Source: Acidobacteriota bacterium
GTDB taxonomy: Bacteria > Acidobacteriota > Thermoanaerobaculia > Multivoradales > UBA5704
DNA length: 16,257 bases
Direction of reading: 5' to 3'
NCBI GenBank assembly: GCA_040005235.1
Contig: JBDTZG010000092.1
Coordinates: 1-16,257, forward strand
Shown: positions 7,833-15,199 of the stretch, piece by piece
Numbering within the stretch: the first letter of the stretch is position 1
Layout of the letters: each line of letters begins with the position of its first letter
Notes under the pieces: model-generated
Seen by the model: the letters and a program-made list of their open reading frames with translations, nothing else
The model's database searches: none
Told to the model about the DNA's origin: nothing
Program-made: the position numbers and the translations under genes

Positions 7833-8627
7833 ATGTCCATTCCTCTCCTGCCGGAAGACGGCCCGCCCCTCGACCGCCCGCCCTTCGACCGCCCGGCGCC
7901 AGCGCCCGAGGCGTCGGTTCCACCGAAACGCGGCTGTGTCCGCCGCTTCTGGCTTCCCGCGGTTATCCTGCTGGTGGTCTACGTCGGCTGGAAGGCGCTT
8001 ACCTGGCCGGACGTCGCGGCGCTTGCCAAGGACAATCCGAAGTCGACAGCGTTCATCGACGCCTACCGCAACCGGTGGTTTTTCGCGGATCGCGAGGTCG
8101 AATGGAAGTGGGTACCCTACACGCGGATTTCGCGCAATCTGCGGCGTGCCGTGCTGGTCGGCGAAGACGCCACGTTCTTCGGCCATGAGGGGTTTGACAC
8201 GGACGAGATGAGAGACGCGATCACCAAGGCGATCGAGAAGAAGCGGCTGCCGCGCGGCGCTTCGACGATCACCCAGCAGTTGGCGAAGAACCTCTATCTG
8301 TCGCCCTCGCGCAACCCGCTGCGGAAGATCGAAGAGGTGATCCTCACCCGCCAGCTCGAAGCGCACCTCCCCAAGAAGCGGATTCTGGAAATCTATCTGA
8401 ACGTGGTCGAGCTCGGCCCCGGCATCTACGGCGCCGAGGCCGCCTCGCGCCACTATTTCCATACCTCCGCCGGCAAACTTTCCGCCCACCAGGCGGCGCA
8501 GCTCGCCGGGAGCCTGCCGGCCCCGAAGACCTGGCATCCGGGCAGCGACAGCAAGAAGTACCTCTGGCACGTCCGCTGGATCGAGCGCCGGATGTGGCGC
8601 ACCGGCTGGGTGAGCGGCCGGGTCTGA
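7833..8627 (+). CDS. mtgA: Monofunctional biosynthetic peptidoglycan transglycosylase (GT51)
   Basis: N-terminal TM anchor, then WVPYTRIS, AVLVGEDATFFGHEGFD, RGASTITQQLAKNLYL, RKIEE, KKRILEIYLNVVELGPGIYGAEAASRHYF. The real start is likely the ATG at 7833, just after the EamA stop; the track ORF from 6936 is an over-extension. Confidence 0.92.
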   Translation: MSIPLLPEDGPPLDRPPFDRPAPAPEASVPPKRGCVRRFWLPAVILLVVYVGWKALTWPDVAALAKDNPKSTAFIDAYRNRWFFADREVEWKWVPYTRISRNLRRAVLVGEDATFFGHEGFDTDEMRDAITKAIEKKRLPRGASTITQQLAKNLYLSPSRNPLRKIEEVILTRQLEAHLPKKRILEIYLNVVELGPGIYGAEAASRHYFHTSAGKLSAHQAAQLAGSLPAPKTWHPGSDSKKYLWHVRWIERRMWRTGWVSGRV

Positions 8628-8662
8628 CCGATCTCCCTTCGCTCGGCACGCCACGGTCACGG

Positions 8663-8974
8663 CTACGACAGAGACTGCTCAGATCGGCGTCTCGCTTTTT
8701 GCGCAGCGGGACGTGCGTCGCCTTTCGTAGCGCTTTTCTTCCCGCTCTTGGCCGGATCGATGGCCGCCGGTGCGTCGGCCTTCTTGGGCGGCACCATGAC
8801 GGGGAAGACAGCCCAGAGTCTCTTCTTCTCGCCCGGATTGTCGTCCACCACGCTGACGACGGGATCTTGCTCTCCGCTCGCCAGAGCCAATGCCGCGTTA
8901 TCCAAGACCTTCGCGACTTCTTTCTTCGATTTCCGCGACGGACGATCGGCGTCCTTTTCCAGATGTCGTTCCAT
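8663..8974 (-). CDS. Small basic, largely disordered protein B (103 aa, contains PPKK)
   Basis: GAGGAG SD 7 nt before the ATG; preceded by the repeated promoter-like motif and hairpin; Lys/Ala/Pro-rich with one short hydrophobic patch (LWAVFPVMV). Confidence 0.65.
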   Translation of the reverse strand: MERHLEKDADRPSRKSKKEVAKVLDNAALALASGEQDPVVSVVDDNPGEKKRLWAVFPVMVPPKKADAPAAIDPAKSGKKSATKGDARPAAQKARRRSEQSLS

Positions 8975-8990
8975 GGCTCATCTCCTCATT

Positions 8991-9020
8991 GCGCCGGGGC
9001 GATTGCGTCGCGCCCGGCTC
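8991..9020 (-). promoter_or_regulatory. 5'-UTR hairpin in front of small protein B
   Basis: Minus strand GAGCCGGG-C-GCGA-CGCAA-TCGC-CCCGGC-GC immediately upstream of the SD; shares the GAGCCGGGCG and CGGCGC ends with 10863-10887. Confidence 0.6.
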
Positions 9021-9062
9021 TCCCTCGTTAGATCACAACCTCAGGTGGTGGGTTCCGGAGAA

Positions 9063-9091
9063 AAAGACACCGTATTGCGGATTCCGTTGAG
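9063..9091 (-). promoter_or_regulatory. ECF-sigma-type promoter motif, copy 2
   Basis: Minus strand CTCAACG-gaatccgcaatac-GGTGTCTTT, 13 nt after the C25 stop; boxes and 13-nt spacer length identical to 10899-10927. Confidence 0.75.
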
Positions 9092-9104
9092 GGGATCCGA
9101 TCGT

Positions 9105-10607
9105 TCACGATTCCGCTTCGGGAGGCAAGGGAAGACGGACGGCCGGATCACCGAAGACGGCGTAGTACCGGGCGTCGTGGCAGGCGGCCTTGACCTCCCA
9201 GAGCGTTTCGGCGGGGACCTCTTTCTTCTCGTAGGCGCGTTGGCTCAATTCGGCGTGCTCGACGAGCCGAGCCTGGTAACAAGACCGAAAGGGAGTCATC
9301 GCCTCGCCGACCGGCCGCCCGCGCAGGAGATCCTTCAGGCATCGGTCGTAGAGCTGCGGCGGCTCAGGGCAGGCACCGTCTTCGCTCCGACCCTCGCGAA
9401 AACTGTAGGCGAAGACGAGATCGAGATGGCCGATCGCCGCGAGCGCTCCCTGCGCGAGCATTCGCTGCGGCAACCGGGCGACCAGATCCTCCGGCGCGAG
9501 CCACTCGGGGATCGGCAGGCCGGCGAGGTGCAGCTCGTTTTGCGCCGGCACGCCGAGGCTGCAGCAGGCGAAATGAAAGGCGATCATTCCGCCGAGCCGG
9601 GTCTCGGCGGCGAGATCGCCGGCCGAGAAGTAGTCGGATTCCGAGATCGCCGCGGCCTCCGGTCCCTGCCAGTCGGCGCACACCAGCGCGCCCTGGTCGG
9701 CGGCCTGGCGCTCGTCGCCGCTCTCGAAGACGGCGCCATGGCCGGCGGTGAACAGAATCGACGGCGGAATCGCCCGCCCGAGCAGCTCGGCGAAGCGATG
9801 CTTGGTCGCCTTCTCGCCCAAAATCCGCTCGACGGTCCAACCATCGTGCGGCAGAGCACAGGCGTCGGCGAGCGGCGCGGCCAGCGATCCTGAGCTCTCC
9901 TTGGAAAGCGGATCGTCCGGGTGCTCGGGCGCGAAAAAGGCGATCCGTCGAGAGGTTTCCGCCGAGGCCGGGGCTCGCTCCATCCGCACCACGTTCTCGG
10001 CATAGCGGGCGAAGGCTTCGATCGAATCGAAATCGATCCGGCCGACCGCATACTCCTGCGCCGCAAGCTCGGTCTGGAAATCGAACGGGATCGTCTGCGG
10101 ACCACCGACCAGCAAAAGGTAACCCGGAATCTTCTTCGGATCCGGGATGCCGGGAGTCACTCTGTACCGTCGGCGAAAATCGAACAGCATCTCGCCCGGC
10201 CGATACTCCAGCTCGCGAAAATGGCGGTCGCCCACCTGTTGGCGACGCAGGGCGAACAGAGGAGCCAAGGCTTCGCGAATCGCCGGCACCTGGCGGTCGC
10301 CGGTCGGAAAAACCACTCCCCAACCGCGGCTCGCGACCTCCCATTCGGGTAAATCCGAACCCGGCGGAGGCTTGCGAGCGCCACGTTTGGACGACCCCGG
10401 ACCGAGTTCCATCACTTCTTGGAGACCCGCCAGCTCCCGATCGGCGAGGCTGCGCCGAGCGTCGGCCACCAACCCGGGCCGCGCGAGCGCGAGGTGAGCG
10501 GCGACCTCCAGGTCGTCGCTCGACAGGGCCGGCAGCGCATAGCGGCCGGTGCGGCCGTTGACGCCGAAGAGTTGAATCCTGTGCGGAGGAGCGGCCATTT
10601 GGTTCAA
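9105..10607 (-). CDS. C25 (gingipain)-like cysteine peptidase, caspase-hemoglobinase fold, no signal peptide; start TTG 10607 or ATG 10598
   Basis: GWGVVFP, IPGYLLLVGGPQTIPFDFQ, YAVGRIDF, ILFTAGHG (His at 9738-9740), QGALVC, AFHFACCSLG (Cys at 9561-9566), GALAAIGHLD, YAVFGDPAVRL. Confidence 0.82.
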   Translation of the reverse strand: MNQMAAPPHRIQLFGVNGRTGRYALPALSSDDLEVAAHLALARPGLVADARRSLADRELAGLQEVMELGPGSSKRGARKPPPGSDLPEWEVASRGWGVVFPTGDRQVPAIREALAPLFALRRQQVGDRHFRELEYRPGEMLFDFRRRYRVTPGIPDPKKIPGYLLLVGGPQTIPFDFQTELAAQEYAVGRIDFDSIEAFARYAENVVRMERAPASAETSRRIAFFAPEHPDDPLSKESSGSLAAPLADACALPHDGWTVERILGEKATKHRFAELLGRAIPPSILFTAGHGAVFESGDERQAADQGALVCADWQGPEAAAISESDYFSAGDLAAETRLGGMIAFHFACCSLGVPAQNELHLAGLPIPEWLAPEDLVARLPQRMLAQGALAAIGHLDLVFAYSFREGRSEDGACPEPPQLYDRCLKDLLRGRPVGEAMTPFRSCYQARLVEHAELSQRAYEKKEVPAETLWEVKAACHDARYYAVFGDPAVRLPLPPEAES

Positions 10608-10609
10608 AC

Positions 10610-10632
10610 CCGCGGCGGCGCAACCGCCGCGG
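10610..10632 (-). terminator. GC-rich hairpin between small protein A and the C25 gene (weak terminator, attenuator or translational block)
   Basis: Perfect 9-bp stem CCGCGGCGG/CCGCCGCGG with a 5-nt loop, extendable by AAT/GTT; followed only by GTTTG on the minus strand. Confidence 0.5.
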
Positions 10633-10640
10633 ATTCGGAT

Positions 10641-10841
10641 CTAGGTGCGCTTCGGCCCGGCCGGAGAGGGAGTCGTGGAGAACGCGCCGGACGCGCTCAT
10701 GATCTTCTTCGGCGGCCCCTTGGGGTCGGTGTCCCCGGGATCGCCCGTGGCGGTTTTCCCCTTGGGCTTCCTCGTGCGGACCGCTTTCGGTGCAGCAACG
10801 TCTGGCACAGCGGCGAAACGTACCGGCGATTGATCGGACAT
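10641..10841 (-). CDS. Small basic disordered protein A (66 aa, contains PPKK)
   Basis: TAAGGAGG SD 5 nt before the ATG at 10841 (MSDQSPVRFAAVPDV...GDPGDTDPKGPPKKIMS...PKRT). The upstream ATG at 10889 in the track lacks an SD. Confidence 0.7.
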   Translation of the reverse strand: MSDQSPVRFAAVPDVAAPKAVRTRKPKGKTATGDPGDTDPKGPPKKIMSASGAFSTTPSPAGPKRT

Positions 10842-10862
10842 ACCCGCCTCCTTAAAGCGTAA

Positions 10863-10887
10863 GCGCCGAGCTTCATTCGCCCGGCTC
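10863..10887 (-). promoter_or_regulatory. 5'-UTR hairpin in front of small protein A
   Basis: Minus strand GA-GCCGGGC-GAATGAA-GCTCGGC-GC: 7-bp stem with one G-U pair, just upstream of the SD. Confidence 0.6.
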
Positions 10888-10898
10888 ATCCAATCCCG

Positions 10899-10927
10899 AA
10901 AGACACCTGTCTGTTCGTTTCGTTGAG
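10899..10927 (-). promoter_or_regulatory. ECF-sigma-type promoter motif, copy 1
   Basis: Minus strand CTCAACG-aaacgaacagaca-GGTGTCTTT, 12 nt after the CHAT stop; an AAC-containing -35 box and a GTC-containing -10 box are typical of ECF promoters. Confidence 0.75.
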
Positions 10928-10939
10928 CACTTTTCTCGT

Positions 10940-13795
10940 TTAGAGGCCATCATCTCGCCAGTCGCCTTGAAGCACAAAGGCGCCCCAGTAATAGGGATCG
11001 TTCCATTGAGGCCGGGAACGAACCGCGAGCTGGCTTTGGCGCAGGGCCGCCGCGGCGGGGAGCCCCCTCTGCAAGAGCTGGCGGTAGAAGCCGACCATTA
11101 GCTCTTCCGTCGAGGTGTCGTCGACCCGCCAGAGGCTCACCAGCGCCTTGGCCGCCCCGGCGGCGAGGAAAGCCCGGCCGAGGCTCTGCGGCCCTTCGCC
11201 GCGCGTCTCTCTTCCGAGCGCCGTGTCGCAGGCGCTCAAGACCACCAGGTCGGCCCGCAGCCTGCGGCCGGCGAGGTCCGACAGGCGGAGAAACGAGTCG
11301 CCGGCGAGTGGGCCGCCTCGCGGATCGCGCCGGGACAAGGCCAGCCCGGAACGCGCCGGACGCACCGGATCGACCAGCCCGTGGGTCGCGAAGTGAAGGA
11401 CGCGGAACGATTCCAACGGCGCGCCGAGCACGGCGCTCCGGCTCGCGGCGAAGCCGAGCCGCTCCACCAACCCGCCGGCACCGGCCAATCGGGCGATCGC
11501 GGCGATTTCGGATCCCGTGCGCCCGATCCGCGGCAGGAGGCCGACGGTGGCGCCGCGCCCCTCCTTGCGGGGGCCGGAAATCACGGTCTCCGCCCAAGAG
11601 CCGAACCGGGTGGCGAGCGAGGCCGGAGCCGGGGCCGGGTTCTTTGGCGTCGCGCAGGAGAGCCGATCGTCCGGACATCCGAAGACCGGATCGCCGACGG
11701 CGAAGAGACCTTGCGCCTTCGGGCGACGCGCCACGGCGTCGCGGATCTCCAACGCAAGCGAGGCCGAAGGAAGGGTGACGACCGCTCCCCGGTCGATCAG
11801 GCGCTCGGGGTTCGCCCCGCTCGAACCGGGGATCGGCAAGGCGGCAAACGGCACCTTGAACAGCACGCCGTCCGGCACGACGACGAAGCCTTGCCCGGCG
11901 AGCCGATCGGCGATAGGGCCGAACAGCGTCCGCGCCAGAGAACCGACGTGATCCTCGCGCGTCGCCAACCGGCCCGGCGGAGCGCCGAGCGCCCGGCTCG
12001 CCAGCCGGCCTTGCGCCTCAATCGCCTCCTGGGCCGGAAGGATGGCGAGCGACAGCCCCTCCCGGCGCACCACCCAGACGAAACTCCGCGTCTCGCCGAG
12101 CCAGTAGTCGAGCAGCCGGTAGCCGGGAGGAAGCGAAGATTGAATCTCGGCCAGGCTCCGCGCCTGGGCGACCGGCCGGCCGCTCACTTCATCCAATAAG
12201 GTGCGCGCCCGCGACCTCTCGCTCGCTTCGAACGCCGCCGGGAACTGTTTCTGCTCCACCAGCAGGTCGACCAGGCGTTCGAAGAAGCGATGCCGATCCG
12301 CGAGAAGGTTGGCGCGTCGTTGCGGCTCCAGCGTCGGGCGCAGCCGCTCCAGGATCGTGATCGCCTGGAGGAGATCGTCGCGCGCCTCGTCGAGGCGGCC
12401 CGCCAGCCGGAGCGCGTCCGACCGGCGAGAGAGCACCCAGGCGTAGTCGCTCTCCCGGCCGAGCCGCCGATACCCTTCGAGCGACCGATTGATCCGTTCG
12501 AGAGCTTCGGCAACCTCGCCGTTCTCCGTCGCGGCAACGCCAAGGATGACTTCGACATTGGCGAGCAAACCGGGCTTGTCGACTTCGTTCCGGAGGATGG
12601 CTTCCGCCGGCCGGAGGAAACGGAGAGCCTCTTTCCTCCGCTTCCGATCCATCTCTACCGCCCCCATCGTGAGCAGAAAGGAGGCTTCCCGCCCCCGGTC
12701 GCCCAACTTCCGGGCGACCGCCAGCGCCTGGTCGGAAGTCGCCAGGGACAGGTCCCACTTCTCTTGGTAGCGATAAGCCAAAGCGAGGTCGTCGAGGAGG
12801 TCTGCCCGCGGCAGTGGAGAGAGACCCAGTGCGAGTCCCGCTTTCGCCCTGAGCTCGGTCTCCTCGGGATCGCCAAGCTCCAGGGAGAGCCTTCCCAAGA
12901 TTTGCTGGCTCAGAGCCTGCCGATGTCGATCGCCGAGTTTCCGCCAGAGGAGCAGCGCCTGTTGAGCGCGAGCGAGCGCCTCCTCGTACCTCCCGCGGAG
13001 CTTTTCGAGGTTACTGAGCCCTTCCAGGGCGAACGCCTCGCGAAACGGGTCGGCCGAATGGCGGCCCAGCCGGTACTCCGCCCCATAGGCCGCCGCCGCC
13101 TCGTCGAGCCGCTGGAGATTCGCCAGGACTTTTCCCAGCTTGTGCAACGCCGCACCTCGGAGCTGGGGTTCTTCCACCAAGGCGGCGGCAGCGCGGAAGT
13201 GGCGGAGCGCTTGGGGATCGTCCTCGGGCAGGCGGCGGCCGATCCGATCGTGGATCTGCGCGGCAAGATCGCCCGCCCTCCCGTCTTCGGCCTGGCGGAG
13301 CGCCCGTTCGAGCAGGGGTACCGCTTGTTGCGAAGGTAGGGCGTTCGCCTCCTCGAAGGCGGCGAAGGCCGCGGCACGTAACCGCTCGCGCGCCGACGCC
13401 GGATGCGGCACCGAGATCGTCAGGCGATAGGCCGGCGCCTCCCCGATCGCCTCCTCGACCACCACCCGCACGCGCGCTTCGCCGGAAGCCTTGGCGACCA
13501 GCTCGAAGGCGTCTGTCCCCGTCGCATAGGTGTTTCCGTCGATCTCCGTCGGCGCGGCTTCGCCCGGCGCCAGGATCTCCAGGATGACGTCGCTCGACCG
13601 CTGCTCGGCGGCGATTCGCACGAACTGCCCCGCGAGGAGCGGGAAGCGATAGAGGTGAGAGGTCTCGCTCCCGCTCCAGGTGCGCACGGCCGCGATACCG
13701 TCGAATTTCTCCCCTTCGATCCGTGCGCCTTCCGTCGAGCCCAGGGCGAGCCCGGCCAGAAGAGCCAGCAGGAAGGAAAGACCGTACCTAGGCAA
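10940..13795 (-). CDS. Exported TPR-CHAT cysteine protease (signal peptide, beta-sandwich, TPR array, CHAT), 951 aa
   Basis: TTG start; signal-like MPRYGLSFLLALLAGLALGSTEG; HLYRFPLLAGQFVRIAAEQ beta domain; TPR-like repeats; AFEASERSRARTLLD; VVPDGVLFKVPFAAL; VLHFATHG (His 11381-11383); LVVLSACDTALG (Cys 11228-11230); VSLWRVDD; PYYWGAFVLQG. Confidence 0.93.
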   Translation of the reverse strand: MPRYGLSFLLALLAGLALGSTEGARIEGEKFDGIAAVRTWSGSETSHLYRFPLLAGQFVRIAAEQRSSDVILEILAPGEAAPTEIDGNTYATGTDAFELVAKASGEARVRVVVEEAIGEAPAYRLTISVPHPASARERLRAAAFAAFEEANALPSQQAVPLLERALRQAEDGRAGDLAAQIHDRIGRRLPEDDPQALRHFRAAAALVEEPQLRGAALHKLGKVLANLQRLDEAAAAYGAEYRLGRHSADPFREAFALEGLSNLEKLRGRYEEALARAQQALLLWRKLGDRHRQALSQQILGRLSLELGDPEETELRAKAGLALGLSPLPRADLLDDLALAYRYQEKWDLSLATSDQALAVARKLGDRGREASFLLTMGAVEMDRKRRKEALRFLRPAEAILRNEVDKPGLLANVEVILGVAATENGEVAEALERINRSLEGYRRLGRESDYAWVLSRRSDALRLAGRLDEARDDLLQAITILERLRPTLEPQRRANLLADRHRFFERLVDLLVEQKQFPAAFEASERSRARTLLDEVSGRPVAQARSLAEIQSSLPPGYRLLDYWLGETRSFVWVVRREGLSLAILPAQEAIEAQGRLASRALGAPPGRLATREDHVGSLARTLFGPIADRLAGQGFVVVPDGVLFKVPFAALPIPGSSGANPERLIDRGAVVTLPSASLALEIRDAVARRPKAQGLFAVGDPVFGCPDDRLSCATPKNPAPAPASLATRFGSWAETVISGPRKEGRGATVGLLPRIGRTGSEIAAIARLAGAGGLVERLGFAASRSAVLGAPLESFRVLHFATHGLVDPVRPARSGLALSRRDPRGGPLAGDSFLRLSDLAGRRLRADLVVLSACDTALGRETRGEGPQSLGRAFLAAGAAKALVSLWRVDDTSTEELMVGFYRQLLQRGLPAAAALRQSQLAVRSRPQWNDPYYWGAFVLQGDWRDDGL

Positions 13796-13811: not shown

Positions 13812-14618
13812 TCAGGGTGCCGAAGATTCCCCCGAGCCGACGGCCGGAGACCCCACCCCGAAGGTACCGACCTCCTTCCAGCCTCCGGCGTTCCATGCGC
13901 CGGCCGGTACCGAGCAACGGAGCCGGCCTCCGGGTAGGCGACGGAAGCGAGCCGGGATTTCGATCCCATATTCGCCGTCCTCGGTCGCCGGGGCTTCCCC
14001 TTGCCAGACCACTGCCCCGGTCCCGTCGAGAAACTCCACCCGCACCGGCGTTCCCGCCGTCAGGTCGGTCATGGGCACGAGGAGCGCCAGGGGATGCCCC
14101 TCTCCCCCGTCGATCCCCCGCTCCGCGCCGCGCGAACCGCCCGTGGCCACCGCCTCGGCAATCACCACGCCGAGCCGGGGTTGATTCGCCTGGTACCAGG
14201 TCCAACCGGCAATCGAGAGCGACAGCACGGCGACCAGCGGCGAGGCCCAGCCGAGCCAATTCTTGCCGCTTCGGGGCGGCGGCATCAGAACCGCCGGCAC
14301 CAGAACCGGCGCCGGCGGCGCTTCGTCGAACCGAGCCCGCAGCTCGTGCCAGGCCCGGCGCTCCTCGGCATCGGCCACCCTCGCGGCCTGGGATTCCGGC
14401 ACGAGGGTCTCTCCCGCCTTCGGTCCGGCAAGCACCAGCTGGCGGCAGGCCCGGCAGGTGACCAGGTGGTCGCGCAGCGTCTCCACCTGTTCGGGCGGCA
14501 GCTCCCCGGCGCCGTAGCGCAGCCAGGTCGCGGCCTCGGGATGCTCCGACAGCGCGTGGGTCCCCGCGTCGATCCAGGCCCTGGCCGCACTGGCGAGTCG
14601 AGATTCCATGTCGATCAT
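13812..14618 (-). CDS. Zinc-binding (zf-HC2) single-pass membrane anti-sigma factor (268 aa)
   Basis: GAGGGAGA SD before the ATG at 14618; HPEAATWLRYGAGEL...DHLVTCRAC (HxxxCxxC); TM WLGWASPLVAVLSLSIAGWTWY; extracytoplasmic beta-rich C-terminus; lies directly downstream of the ECF gene. Confidence 0.88.
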   Translation of the reverse strand: MIDMESRLASAARAWIDAGTHALSEHPEAATWLRYGAGELPPEQVETLRDHLVTCRACRQLVLAGPKAGETLVPESQAARVADAEERRAWHELRARFDEAPPAPVLVPAVLMPPPRSGKNWLGWASPLVAVLSLSIAGWTWYQANQPRLGVVIAEAVATGGSRGAERGIDGGEGHPLALLVPMTDLTAGTPVRVEFLDGTGAVVWQGEAPATEDGEYGIEIPARFRRLPGGRLRCSVPAGAWNAGGWKEVGTFGVGSPAVGSGESSAP

Positions 14619-14635
14619 TTCGTCTCCCTCTCGCC

Positions 14636-15199
14636 TCAGTGAACCGGTTCGCCCGGATCGGTCAGAATTTCGCGCAAGCGGCGGCGGGCTTGGAACAGAT
14701 GGGCGCGGACGGTCTCTTCCGAGACCAGCAGCAGGGTGGCAATCTCGCCGTAGCTCTGCCCGTCCAGGTACAAGAGGACGACGCGGCTCATCTTCTTCGG
14801 CAACGATTCGATCGCCGCGCGGAGCCAGAGCGCCCGTTCCCCTTCGAGAGTGTCGGCGAGCGGATCGATCTGGGGATCGGGAAGGTCGAAAAAGTTTCCT
14901 TCGCCGTCGTCGAGCGAGATCTCGCGCCCCTTGCGCTTGCCCGCGTCGCGGTGCCGCAGATGATTCTTGTAGATGTTTTTCGCGATCTGGTACAACCAAC
15001 CCTCCTTCGCCTCCTCGTCCTCGAGCTGGTGGATGCCCCGCCAGACCCGGGAGAAGGTCTCTTGCGCGAGATCTTCCGCCTCCTCGGTGGAAAATCGTCG
15101 GACAATGAAGAAGACACGGATGGAGTGCCAATGGTTGAGAAAAAGTTCCTCGACCATCCGGGAATCGTCCCGATCGCGTCGAGAGGGGGGGATCGCCAT
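14636..15199 (-). CDS. ECF-type RNA polymerase sigma factor (~187 aa; alternative start 15157)
   Basis: Region 2: EEAEDLAQETFSRVWRG...GWLYQIAKNIYKNHLR. Region 4: LRAAIESLPKKMSRVVLLYLDGQSYGEIATLLLVSEETVRAHLFQARRRLRE. No region 3. The track ORF from 15883 is an over-extension across yceI. Confidence 0.93.
   Translation of the reverse strand: MAIPPSRRDRDDSRMVEELFLNHWHSIRVFFIVRRFSTEEAEDLAQETFSRVWRGIHQLEDEEAKEGWLYQIAKNIYKNHLRHRDAGKRKGREISLDDGEGNFFDLPDPQIDPLADTLEGERALWLRAAIESLPKKMSRVVLLYLDGQSYGEIATLLLVSEETVRAHLFQARRRLREILTDPGEPVH
15110..15139 (-). promoter_or_regulatory. Possible third copy of the ECF motif, inside the sigma gene
   Basis: Minus strand CTCAACC-N14-CGTGTCTTC: CTCAAC and GTGTCTT cores identical to the other two copies, spacer 1 nt longer. 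Confidence 0.4.

Follow-up and report, generated by a model that had tools for sequence, protein, structure and literature searches.

A predicted ECF sigma promoter repeated after two protease genes in a split DdvS/DdvA-like cassette of Acidobacteriota

Genes and motif copies at the locus

The window, i.e. the whole stretch of 16,257 nt that was analysed, carries on its minus strand, in order, yceI, an ECF sigma factor, a putative anti-sigma factor, a TPR-CHAT protease, motif copy P1, a 66-aa ORF (peptide A), a C25-like protease, motif copy P2 and a 103-aa ORF (peptide B) (Table 1). On the plus strand, positions 615-2726 encode a protein of up to 703 aa that is probably exported and has no Pfam match at E 0.01.

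Table 1. Features of the cassette and of its predicted promoters
Feature	Positions in the window	Strand	Remarks
ECF sigma factor, 187 aa	14636..15199	minus	Pfam Sigma70_r2 and r4_2; TIGR02937 above cut-off
Candidate third promoter, sigma codons 21-30	15110..15139	minus	seen in the genus only
Putative single-pass anti-sigma factor, HxxxCxxC zinc motif	13812..14621	minus	zf-HC2 just below cut-off, E 3e-4
TPR-CHAT caspase-like protease	10940..13795	minus	Pfam CHAT and TPR_12
P1, predicted ECF promoter	10899..10927	minus	-35 box TCAACG, -10 box GTGTCT
Peptide A, 66 aa, first gene after P1	10641..10841	minus	RBS and orthologues
C25-like (gingipain-type) cysteine protease	9105..10607	minus	without signal peptide; start may be 10598
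P2, second motif copy, predicted ECF promoter	9063..9091	minus	
Peptide B, 103 aa, first gene after P2	8663..8974	minus	

Among solved structures, the sigma profile matches 6in7 and E. coli RpoE (1or7) best, and Pfam gives no region 3 match. Profile alignment to RpoE equates residues N75, N79, R165 and A166 with RpoE Asn80, Asn84, Arg171 and Ser172 (RpoE numbering is used below). The -10 recognition loop (sigma residues 57-67) is atypical in the genus, with Leu and Glu for RpoE Phe64 and Ser68; the genus lies on a long branch and its loop is unlike the RpoE-type loop of the family, yet C at -10 is retained. The putative anti-sigma factor scores 21.3 bits against zf-HC2 (cut-off 22.2) and has a single moderately hydrophobic 19-residue segment at 123-141, beyond which the C-terminal part is presumed to be periplasmic.

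Both protease assignments made in the initial annotation are fair. The TPR-CHAT protein has a clear Pfam CHAT match (E 2e-62) and, by hydropathy and motif inspection, a signal-like N-terminus and the His and Cys motifs; among solved structures, TPR structures alone were matched. The C25-like protein matches Peptidase_C25 below the curated Pfam cut-off (E 3.5e-4), is placed among C25 clusters by ESM Atlas (score 0.99) and retains the His-Gly in 47 of 48 aligned rows; a search by sequence found no solved-structure relative.

Peptide A lies 57 nt past the P1 motif, has no signal peptide and gave no Pfam, NCBIfam or PADLOC match, and peptide B begins 88 nt past the P2 motif. No family was matched by the peptides, none of their cluster members is named, and elsewhere in the genome no paralogue was found; direct BLASTP of the window's peptide A against peptide B gave nothing. 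Orthologues of A and B within the genus have in common a short core ending in Ser-Gly-Ala-aromatic or a similar hydrophobic stretch. Because the leaders of P1 and P2 also share a further stretch, GAGCCGGGCG, and the peptide cores are shared in relatives, the two promoter-peptide units probably go back to an old duplication. The C25-like gene is probably co-transcribed with peptide A from P1. Between these two genes lies a perfect 9-bp GC hairpin predicted from the sequence (10614-10636, minus strand), which could lower read-through or stabilise the peptide mRNA.

The positions and bases of the two motif copies are as first described: all 16 box bases are the same in P1 and P2, the 13-nt spacers differ in sequence, and the distance from AAC to GTC is 17 nt in both. 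Transcription would start near 10891-10894 for P1 and near 9056, at a pyrimidine-purine step, for P2. P1 and P2 are the only matches in the window, even with three mismatches allowed; none of 200 shuffled windows had two matches (mean 0.07). The genome scan proposed in the initial annotation, pre-filtered on AAC, gave in the 6.2-Mb genome (66% GC) two exact matches and two with one mismatch at the 13-nt spacing, and none at 0 or 1 mismatch with spacers of 10-12 or 14-16 nt.

Conservation of the site and covariation with the sigma factor

An orthologous sigma factor is present in all seven genus relatives (Thermoanaerobaculia) at 63-96% identity, and there too the anti-sigma factor and TPR-CHAT are separate ORFs. 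P1 is found in five of the seven, i.e. G003, G004, G006 and G007, plus G005, where it stands on another contig before a peptide A-like gene. The remaining two, G001 and G002, have neither P1 nor peptide A, and their C25-like gene follows CHAT within 100 nt. P2 is present in six of the seven; in G005 the sequence ends short. In the genus alignment the spacer is gap-free and variable and the boxes are near-invariant. P1 begins 12 nt past the CHAT stop and P2 13 nt past the C25-like stop, with ACGA directly after both stops, as the initial annotation had it. This holds for the window. In G004, G006 and G007, however, the CHAT frame reads through the P1 motif, and in G003 the CHAT stop is followed by GCGA; 'ACGA after stop' was dropped as a feature of the motif. 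Since P1 and peptide A are absent together and CHAT can read through the site, the motif travels with the downstream small gene and not with the stop. Its position after the protease genes was thus correctly described, but it belongs to the small peptide gene that follows. Cassette copy number also differs within the genus: G007 (L017) has three tandem CHAT genes and G001 (L021) a second CHAT gene 3' of the C25-like gene; in G002 (L018) the C25-like gene occurs twice, and P2 as a tandem pair.

Beyond the genus, 160 loci collected via the sigma alignment gave 86 sigma/CHAT units, 76 of them distinct. Of these 76 cassettes, 58 have a site at the motif spacing within 200 nt of the CHAT end that reaches 9 or more out of 10; the reverse strand has none (0/76), and shuffled sequences average 1.85. 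Perfect scores number 44 at the motif spacing and at most 3 at other spacings. A score of 9 is also reached at shifted spacings, in 37 cases when the spacing is three shorter and in 17 when it is one longer, and these matches probably overlap the same sites. An RBS-led ORF starts within 120 nt past the site in 57 of 59 cases, compared with 4 on the reverse strand and 8.8 in shuffles. A held-out set of 80 further sigma regions (17 without a nearby CHAT gene; 60 units, 3 of them duplicates) added 57 new cassettes. In 23 of these the site lies above the 99th null percentile of a matrix that is blind to -13/-12 and was trained on the picks of a first site picker favouring GTGTCT and GGATCT. In the combined set the site is present at the CHAT 3' end in 86 of 133 sigma/anti-sigma/TPR-CHAT cassettes; the 47 with no site above threshold include 34 of the 57 in the more divergent second set.

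The -10 boxes can be grouped into the classes GTGTC, GGGTC, GGATC and GCATC/ACATC. Among the sigma columns, that of window residue 79, the equivalent of RpoE Asn84, carries the most information on the -12 base. A at -12 occurs with none of 63 Asn84-type sigma factors (56 G, 7 T) and with 21 of 23 Lys, Glu or Arg types. Across the 133 cassettes the -13/-12 pairs are TG 45, GG 11, xT 7 and xA 0 with Asn at 84, GA 18 and GG 1 with Lys, CA 2 with Glu, and GA 1 and AT 1 with Arg. Mutagenesis by Todor et al. 2020 (PMC7776599) showed, in the parts of the article used here, that the Asn84-equivalent residue sets -13 and -12. The portion of its Dataset S3 that bears on these residues gives GA (0.19, top) and GG (0.18) for Lys84, CA (0.35, top) for Glu84, and CG (0.40) followed by TG (0.19) for Asn84; it also gives C at -31 for Arg or Lys at 171 (0.88, 0.98), and C stands at -31 in 58 of 58 sites here. 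The natural -13/-12 variants, as read from predicted sites, match this published mutagenesis of residue 84 as far as those portions go. T at -12, found in 7 of 63 Asn84 sigma factors, is disfavoured by it.

On the tree, residue 84 and the -12 base change three times each, with one independent pair of changes on well-supported branches and three on all branches; because there are only one to three independent changes, a tree test cannot reach significance. The weight of the covariation is its agreement with independent experiments for three residue states. At other positions the family alignment offers less. No explanatory sigma column was found for the -34, -33, -32 and -15 bases, and the -30 base tracks residue 161, confounded with clade; it is G in the genus of the window only. 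A rule linking His80 to G at -13, drawn from seven His80 rows with one Asn80 exception in the first set, failed in L235 and L237 and was rejected.

Typically, the ORF that comes first after the site encodes 25-120 aa (median 58) and is rich in Pro, Gly, Asp and Lys. Among 55 such peptides, 15 have an exact internal repeat of at least six residues and one has a hydrophobic stretch. Those of L145, L154, L162, L164, L165, L109, L092 and L050 consist of two to four near-identical repeats of 10-24 residues, which differ by lineage and resemble multi-core precursor peptides; a C25-like gene follows directly in all except L050, where the sequence ends. Going by this co-location, the best guess is that the peptides are processed by the C25-like protease. 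Cassettes of the Lys84 type (L063, L074, L083, L101, L112, L180) often have a second, more distant sigma gene past the peptide, which suggests a sigma cascade.

The reader of the motif and its regulon

The sequence evidence allows the motif to be called an ECF promoter with great confidence. An AAC -35 and a GT -10 core stand at fixed spacing, in a single orientation and upstream of RBS-led ORFs, and the bases fit the specificity residues of the sigma factor, the T at -12 in some Asn84 cassettes and the atypical -10 loop being exceptions. With orientation, fixed spacer, footprint, downstream ORFs and -13/-12 covariation, the original proposal of an ECF promoter is well supported, and the covariation with the base-reading residue likewise favours the local sigma factor, which is judged with good confidence to be the main reader. 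The genome has 39 TIGR02937 matches over cut-off, so an ECF promoter read mainly by another sigma factor, e.g. a general envelope-stress ECF to which the local one is a mere neighbour, has to be weighed. No site was found upstream of the local sigma gene, and Asn84 also occurs in four further aligned sigma factors, of which the one at C119:6191-6790 is encoded some 7 kb from the L,D-transpeptidase site described below. These other Asn84 sigma factors, however, differ at 171, 172 or 175; among 30 aligned sigma-like proteins (of 53 matches, several gapped at key positions) the window sigma alone combines N80, N84, R171, A172 and F175. With a common outside sigma, moreover, the -12 base would not be expected to vary with the sigma factor next to it, and neighbouring cassettes on a single contig have different boxes (L051 and L057; GGGTC after one CHAT gene and GTGTC after the next). 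Reading by another sigma factor is accordingly considered unlikely.

Two fixed boxes around a free spacer are found in operators too, but the motif is neither a palindrome nor a direct repeat, has one orientation and ECF-like AAC-17-GTC geometry, and covaries with a residue of sigma region 2; in 8500-11200 no sigma-70 promoter that an activator or repressor could regulate was predicted. A site for a transcription factor other than a sigma is very improbable on these grounds. Hardly credible either is an RNA element at the 3' end of the protease mRNA (terminator, processing site or small RNA) or a neutral remnant of duplication, even with the motif standing just past two stops and the two units being probable old duplicates by their leaders and by the peptide cores of relatives. 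No stable fold (z -1.36 and -0.25), no terminator call at the motif and no credible Rfam match were obtained; in some relatives the motif overlaps CHAT codons, and it is lost with the downstream peptide gene. The boxes are also kept while the spacers diverge across an order. The initial claim of a protein-recognised site and not a recent duplication needs correcting in that the copies and their peptides look like an old duplication, in which selection has preserved the boxes.

With a matrix built from 38 non-genus sites, P1 ranks first in the genome and P2 ninth. At scores of at least 15, the 13-nt spacer gives 16 matches, compared with 15, 6, 16 and 4 at spacers of 11, 12, 14 and 15 nt. A large regulon was rejected on this lack of excess over control spacers; for the same reason, of the regulon that was to be predictable from the motif, only a handful of sites can be predicted. 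From the sequence the regulon looks small, comprising two peptides rich in Pro, Gly, Asp and Lys and the C25-like protease. An L,D-transpeptidase and an exported TPR protein are probably included. The site at C119:14055 lies 146 nt before the L,D-transpeptidase gene and is kept in G002 and G007, has one extra spacer base in G004, and is missing from more distant homologues; with another Asn84 sigma about 7 kb away, cross-reading there is possible. At C18:74139 the site stands before the gene of a TPR protein of 142 aa whose N-terminus is signal-like; G002, G004 and G007 retain this site.

Other high-ranking matches fared differently. C83:8192 scores high, but neither gene nor site was found in five relatives and it is unsupported. 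Upstream of it a 54-nt piece alone matches, in G002; this piece (L012:8200-8253, minus strand) corresponds to a repeat close to two contig ends of G002, and it looks like the end of a mobile element. C83:5408 is antisense and inside a gene, and was discarded. The third-best match in the genome (G000:C9:37992, minus strand) lies 24 nt upstream of a tandem pair of TPR-CHAT genes; a different ECF sigma factor, with Asp at 84, is encoded nearby, and cross-talk between that cassette and the window's is possible. In all, the genome (G000) has 25 CHAT-domain matches, and several of its CHAT genes are beside sigma genes.

Upstream of the sigma CDS, no site scoring at least 13 was found in the 76 cassettes, up to 1.5 kb where sequence allowed. 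In E. coli, the rseA P3 promoter lies within the sigma gene, depends on the sigma factor and increases expression of the anti-sigma factor. The candidate third promoter inside the window's sigma gene would match this arrangement, but it departs from the motif by one extra spacer base, or by ACC in place of AAC, and is confined to one genus, where it scores 14.9-17.1 in nine of nine rows. Sigma codons 19-35 keep five non-preferred codons in 13 invariant columns, compared with 2 of 97 such columns elsewhere in the sigma gene and 1 of 106 in yceI. As rare codons may also be retained in 5' regions on unrelated grounds, the chance that this internal site drives the anti-sigma factor as a negative feedback is put near even; transcription from it would run on into the anti-sigma and CHAT genes.

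Known systems and a possible mechanism

Additional information can be garnered from described ECF systems. Going by the parts of PMC6061681 and PMC11506125 used here, the DdvS/DdvA system of Myxococcus xanthus, like the window, combines an ECF sigma factor, a zinc anti-sigma factor (a putative one in the window) and a TPR-CHAT module, has several local promoters with AA and GT cores, and shows the same operon order, including a small unknown gene and a C25-type peptidase (compared via the Fig. 1A legend). DdvA has a membrane helix between its zinc domain and TPR-CHAT, and the window's anti-sigma factor a single hydrophobic segment. The differences are that DdvA is one fused protein and the window has two separate ORFs (Table 1), that DdvS promoters read GTAA-n16-CGT, one base shorter than TCAAC-n15-GTGTCT, and that DdvS has an upstream autoregulatory promoter, of which none was found for the window's cassette. 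DdvS/DdvA also controls CBASS and CRISPR-Cas, neither of which is among the scanned window proteins or the top predicted targets; in the same sources only a subset of DdvA-like pairs lies near defence genes. Fused DdvA forms are given by the DdvA authors for Myxococcota and one Comamonas only. DdvS was not among the solved-structure hits of the window's sigma profile. By this analogy the cassette resembles a split DdvS/DdvA unit.

The predicted promoter itself is an ordinary ECF promoter. As in the RpoE/AlgU type of PMC7776599, in the parts used, AAC lies at -33 to -31 and GTC at -12 to -10, and the window's sigma factor keeps Asn80, Asn84, Arg171 and Phe175; the RpoE-type -35 box starts with GG and here with TC (Ala at 172 and Gln at 176). 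The motif search of that study, as its consulted parts describe it, looked upstream, and the window's promoters lie downstream of the cassette. ECF54 of Casas-Pastor et al. 2021 (PMC7826278) is likewise near TPR-CHAT genes, but in the parts of that article used here it is 100% actinobacterial, without a putative anti-sigma factor and with the motif GTATCAG / CTCC; membership was rejected, the relatives being Thermoanaerobaculia, an anti-sigma candidate being present and the motif another. No description of a split cassette in Acidobacteriota was found in a literature search that had most subscription journals outside its range.

The sigma factor would be held by the zinc anti-sigma factor of the next gene, going by ECF biology and DdvA, and would be freed by anti-sigma cleavage, plausibly via the exported TPR-CHAT protease as proposed for DdvA. 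Once free, it would use P1 to express peptide A together with the C25-like protease and P2 to express peptide B, and would also transcribe a few envelope genes at a distance. Its own gene is apparently not driven from upstream, and in the genus the anti-sigma factor may rise via the site inside the sigma gene. This whole account, in which the motif is the -35/-10 promoter of the local sigma factor, released by anti-sigma cleavage and with a small regulon, is considered probable.

A bolder reading, which we regard as doubtful, sees in the cassettes a large family, so far undescribed, of protease switches gated by peptides, with a short, fast-evolving peptide as main product. The cytoplasmic C25-like protease would cut the peptide into core units; the cores, out by lysis or export, would bind the periplasmic TPR-CHAT protein of the same cassette, and the bound protein would trigger or damp anti-sigma cleavage. 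If true, the cores would serve as a danger or kin signal particular to each cassette, in which sigma factor, promoter, peptide and receptor are matched, and would give a lead on the activating signal that is missing for DdvA-like systems.

For the DdvS/DdvA-like account favoured above, the predicted promoter offers a ready reporter for a split protease switch of this type. Because the cassette is split, the proposal that CHAT cuts the anti-sigma factor can be assayed with separate proteins. The output of the family is identified as tiny peptide genes without family annotation. The cassettes further provide natural sigma/promoter pairs from a little-studied lineage, which follow the published Asn84 code and lie outside upstream motif searches.
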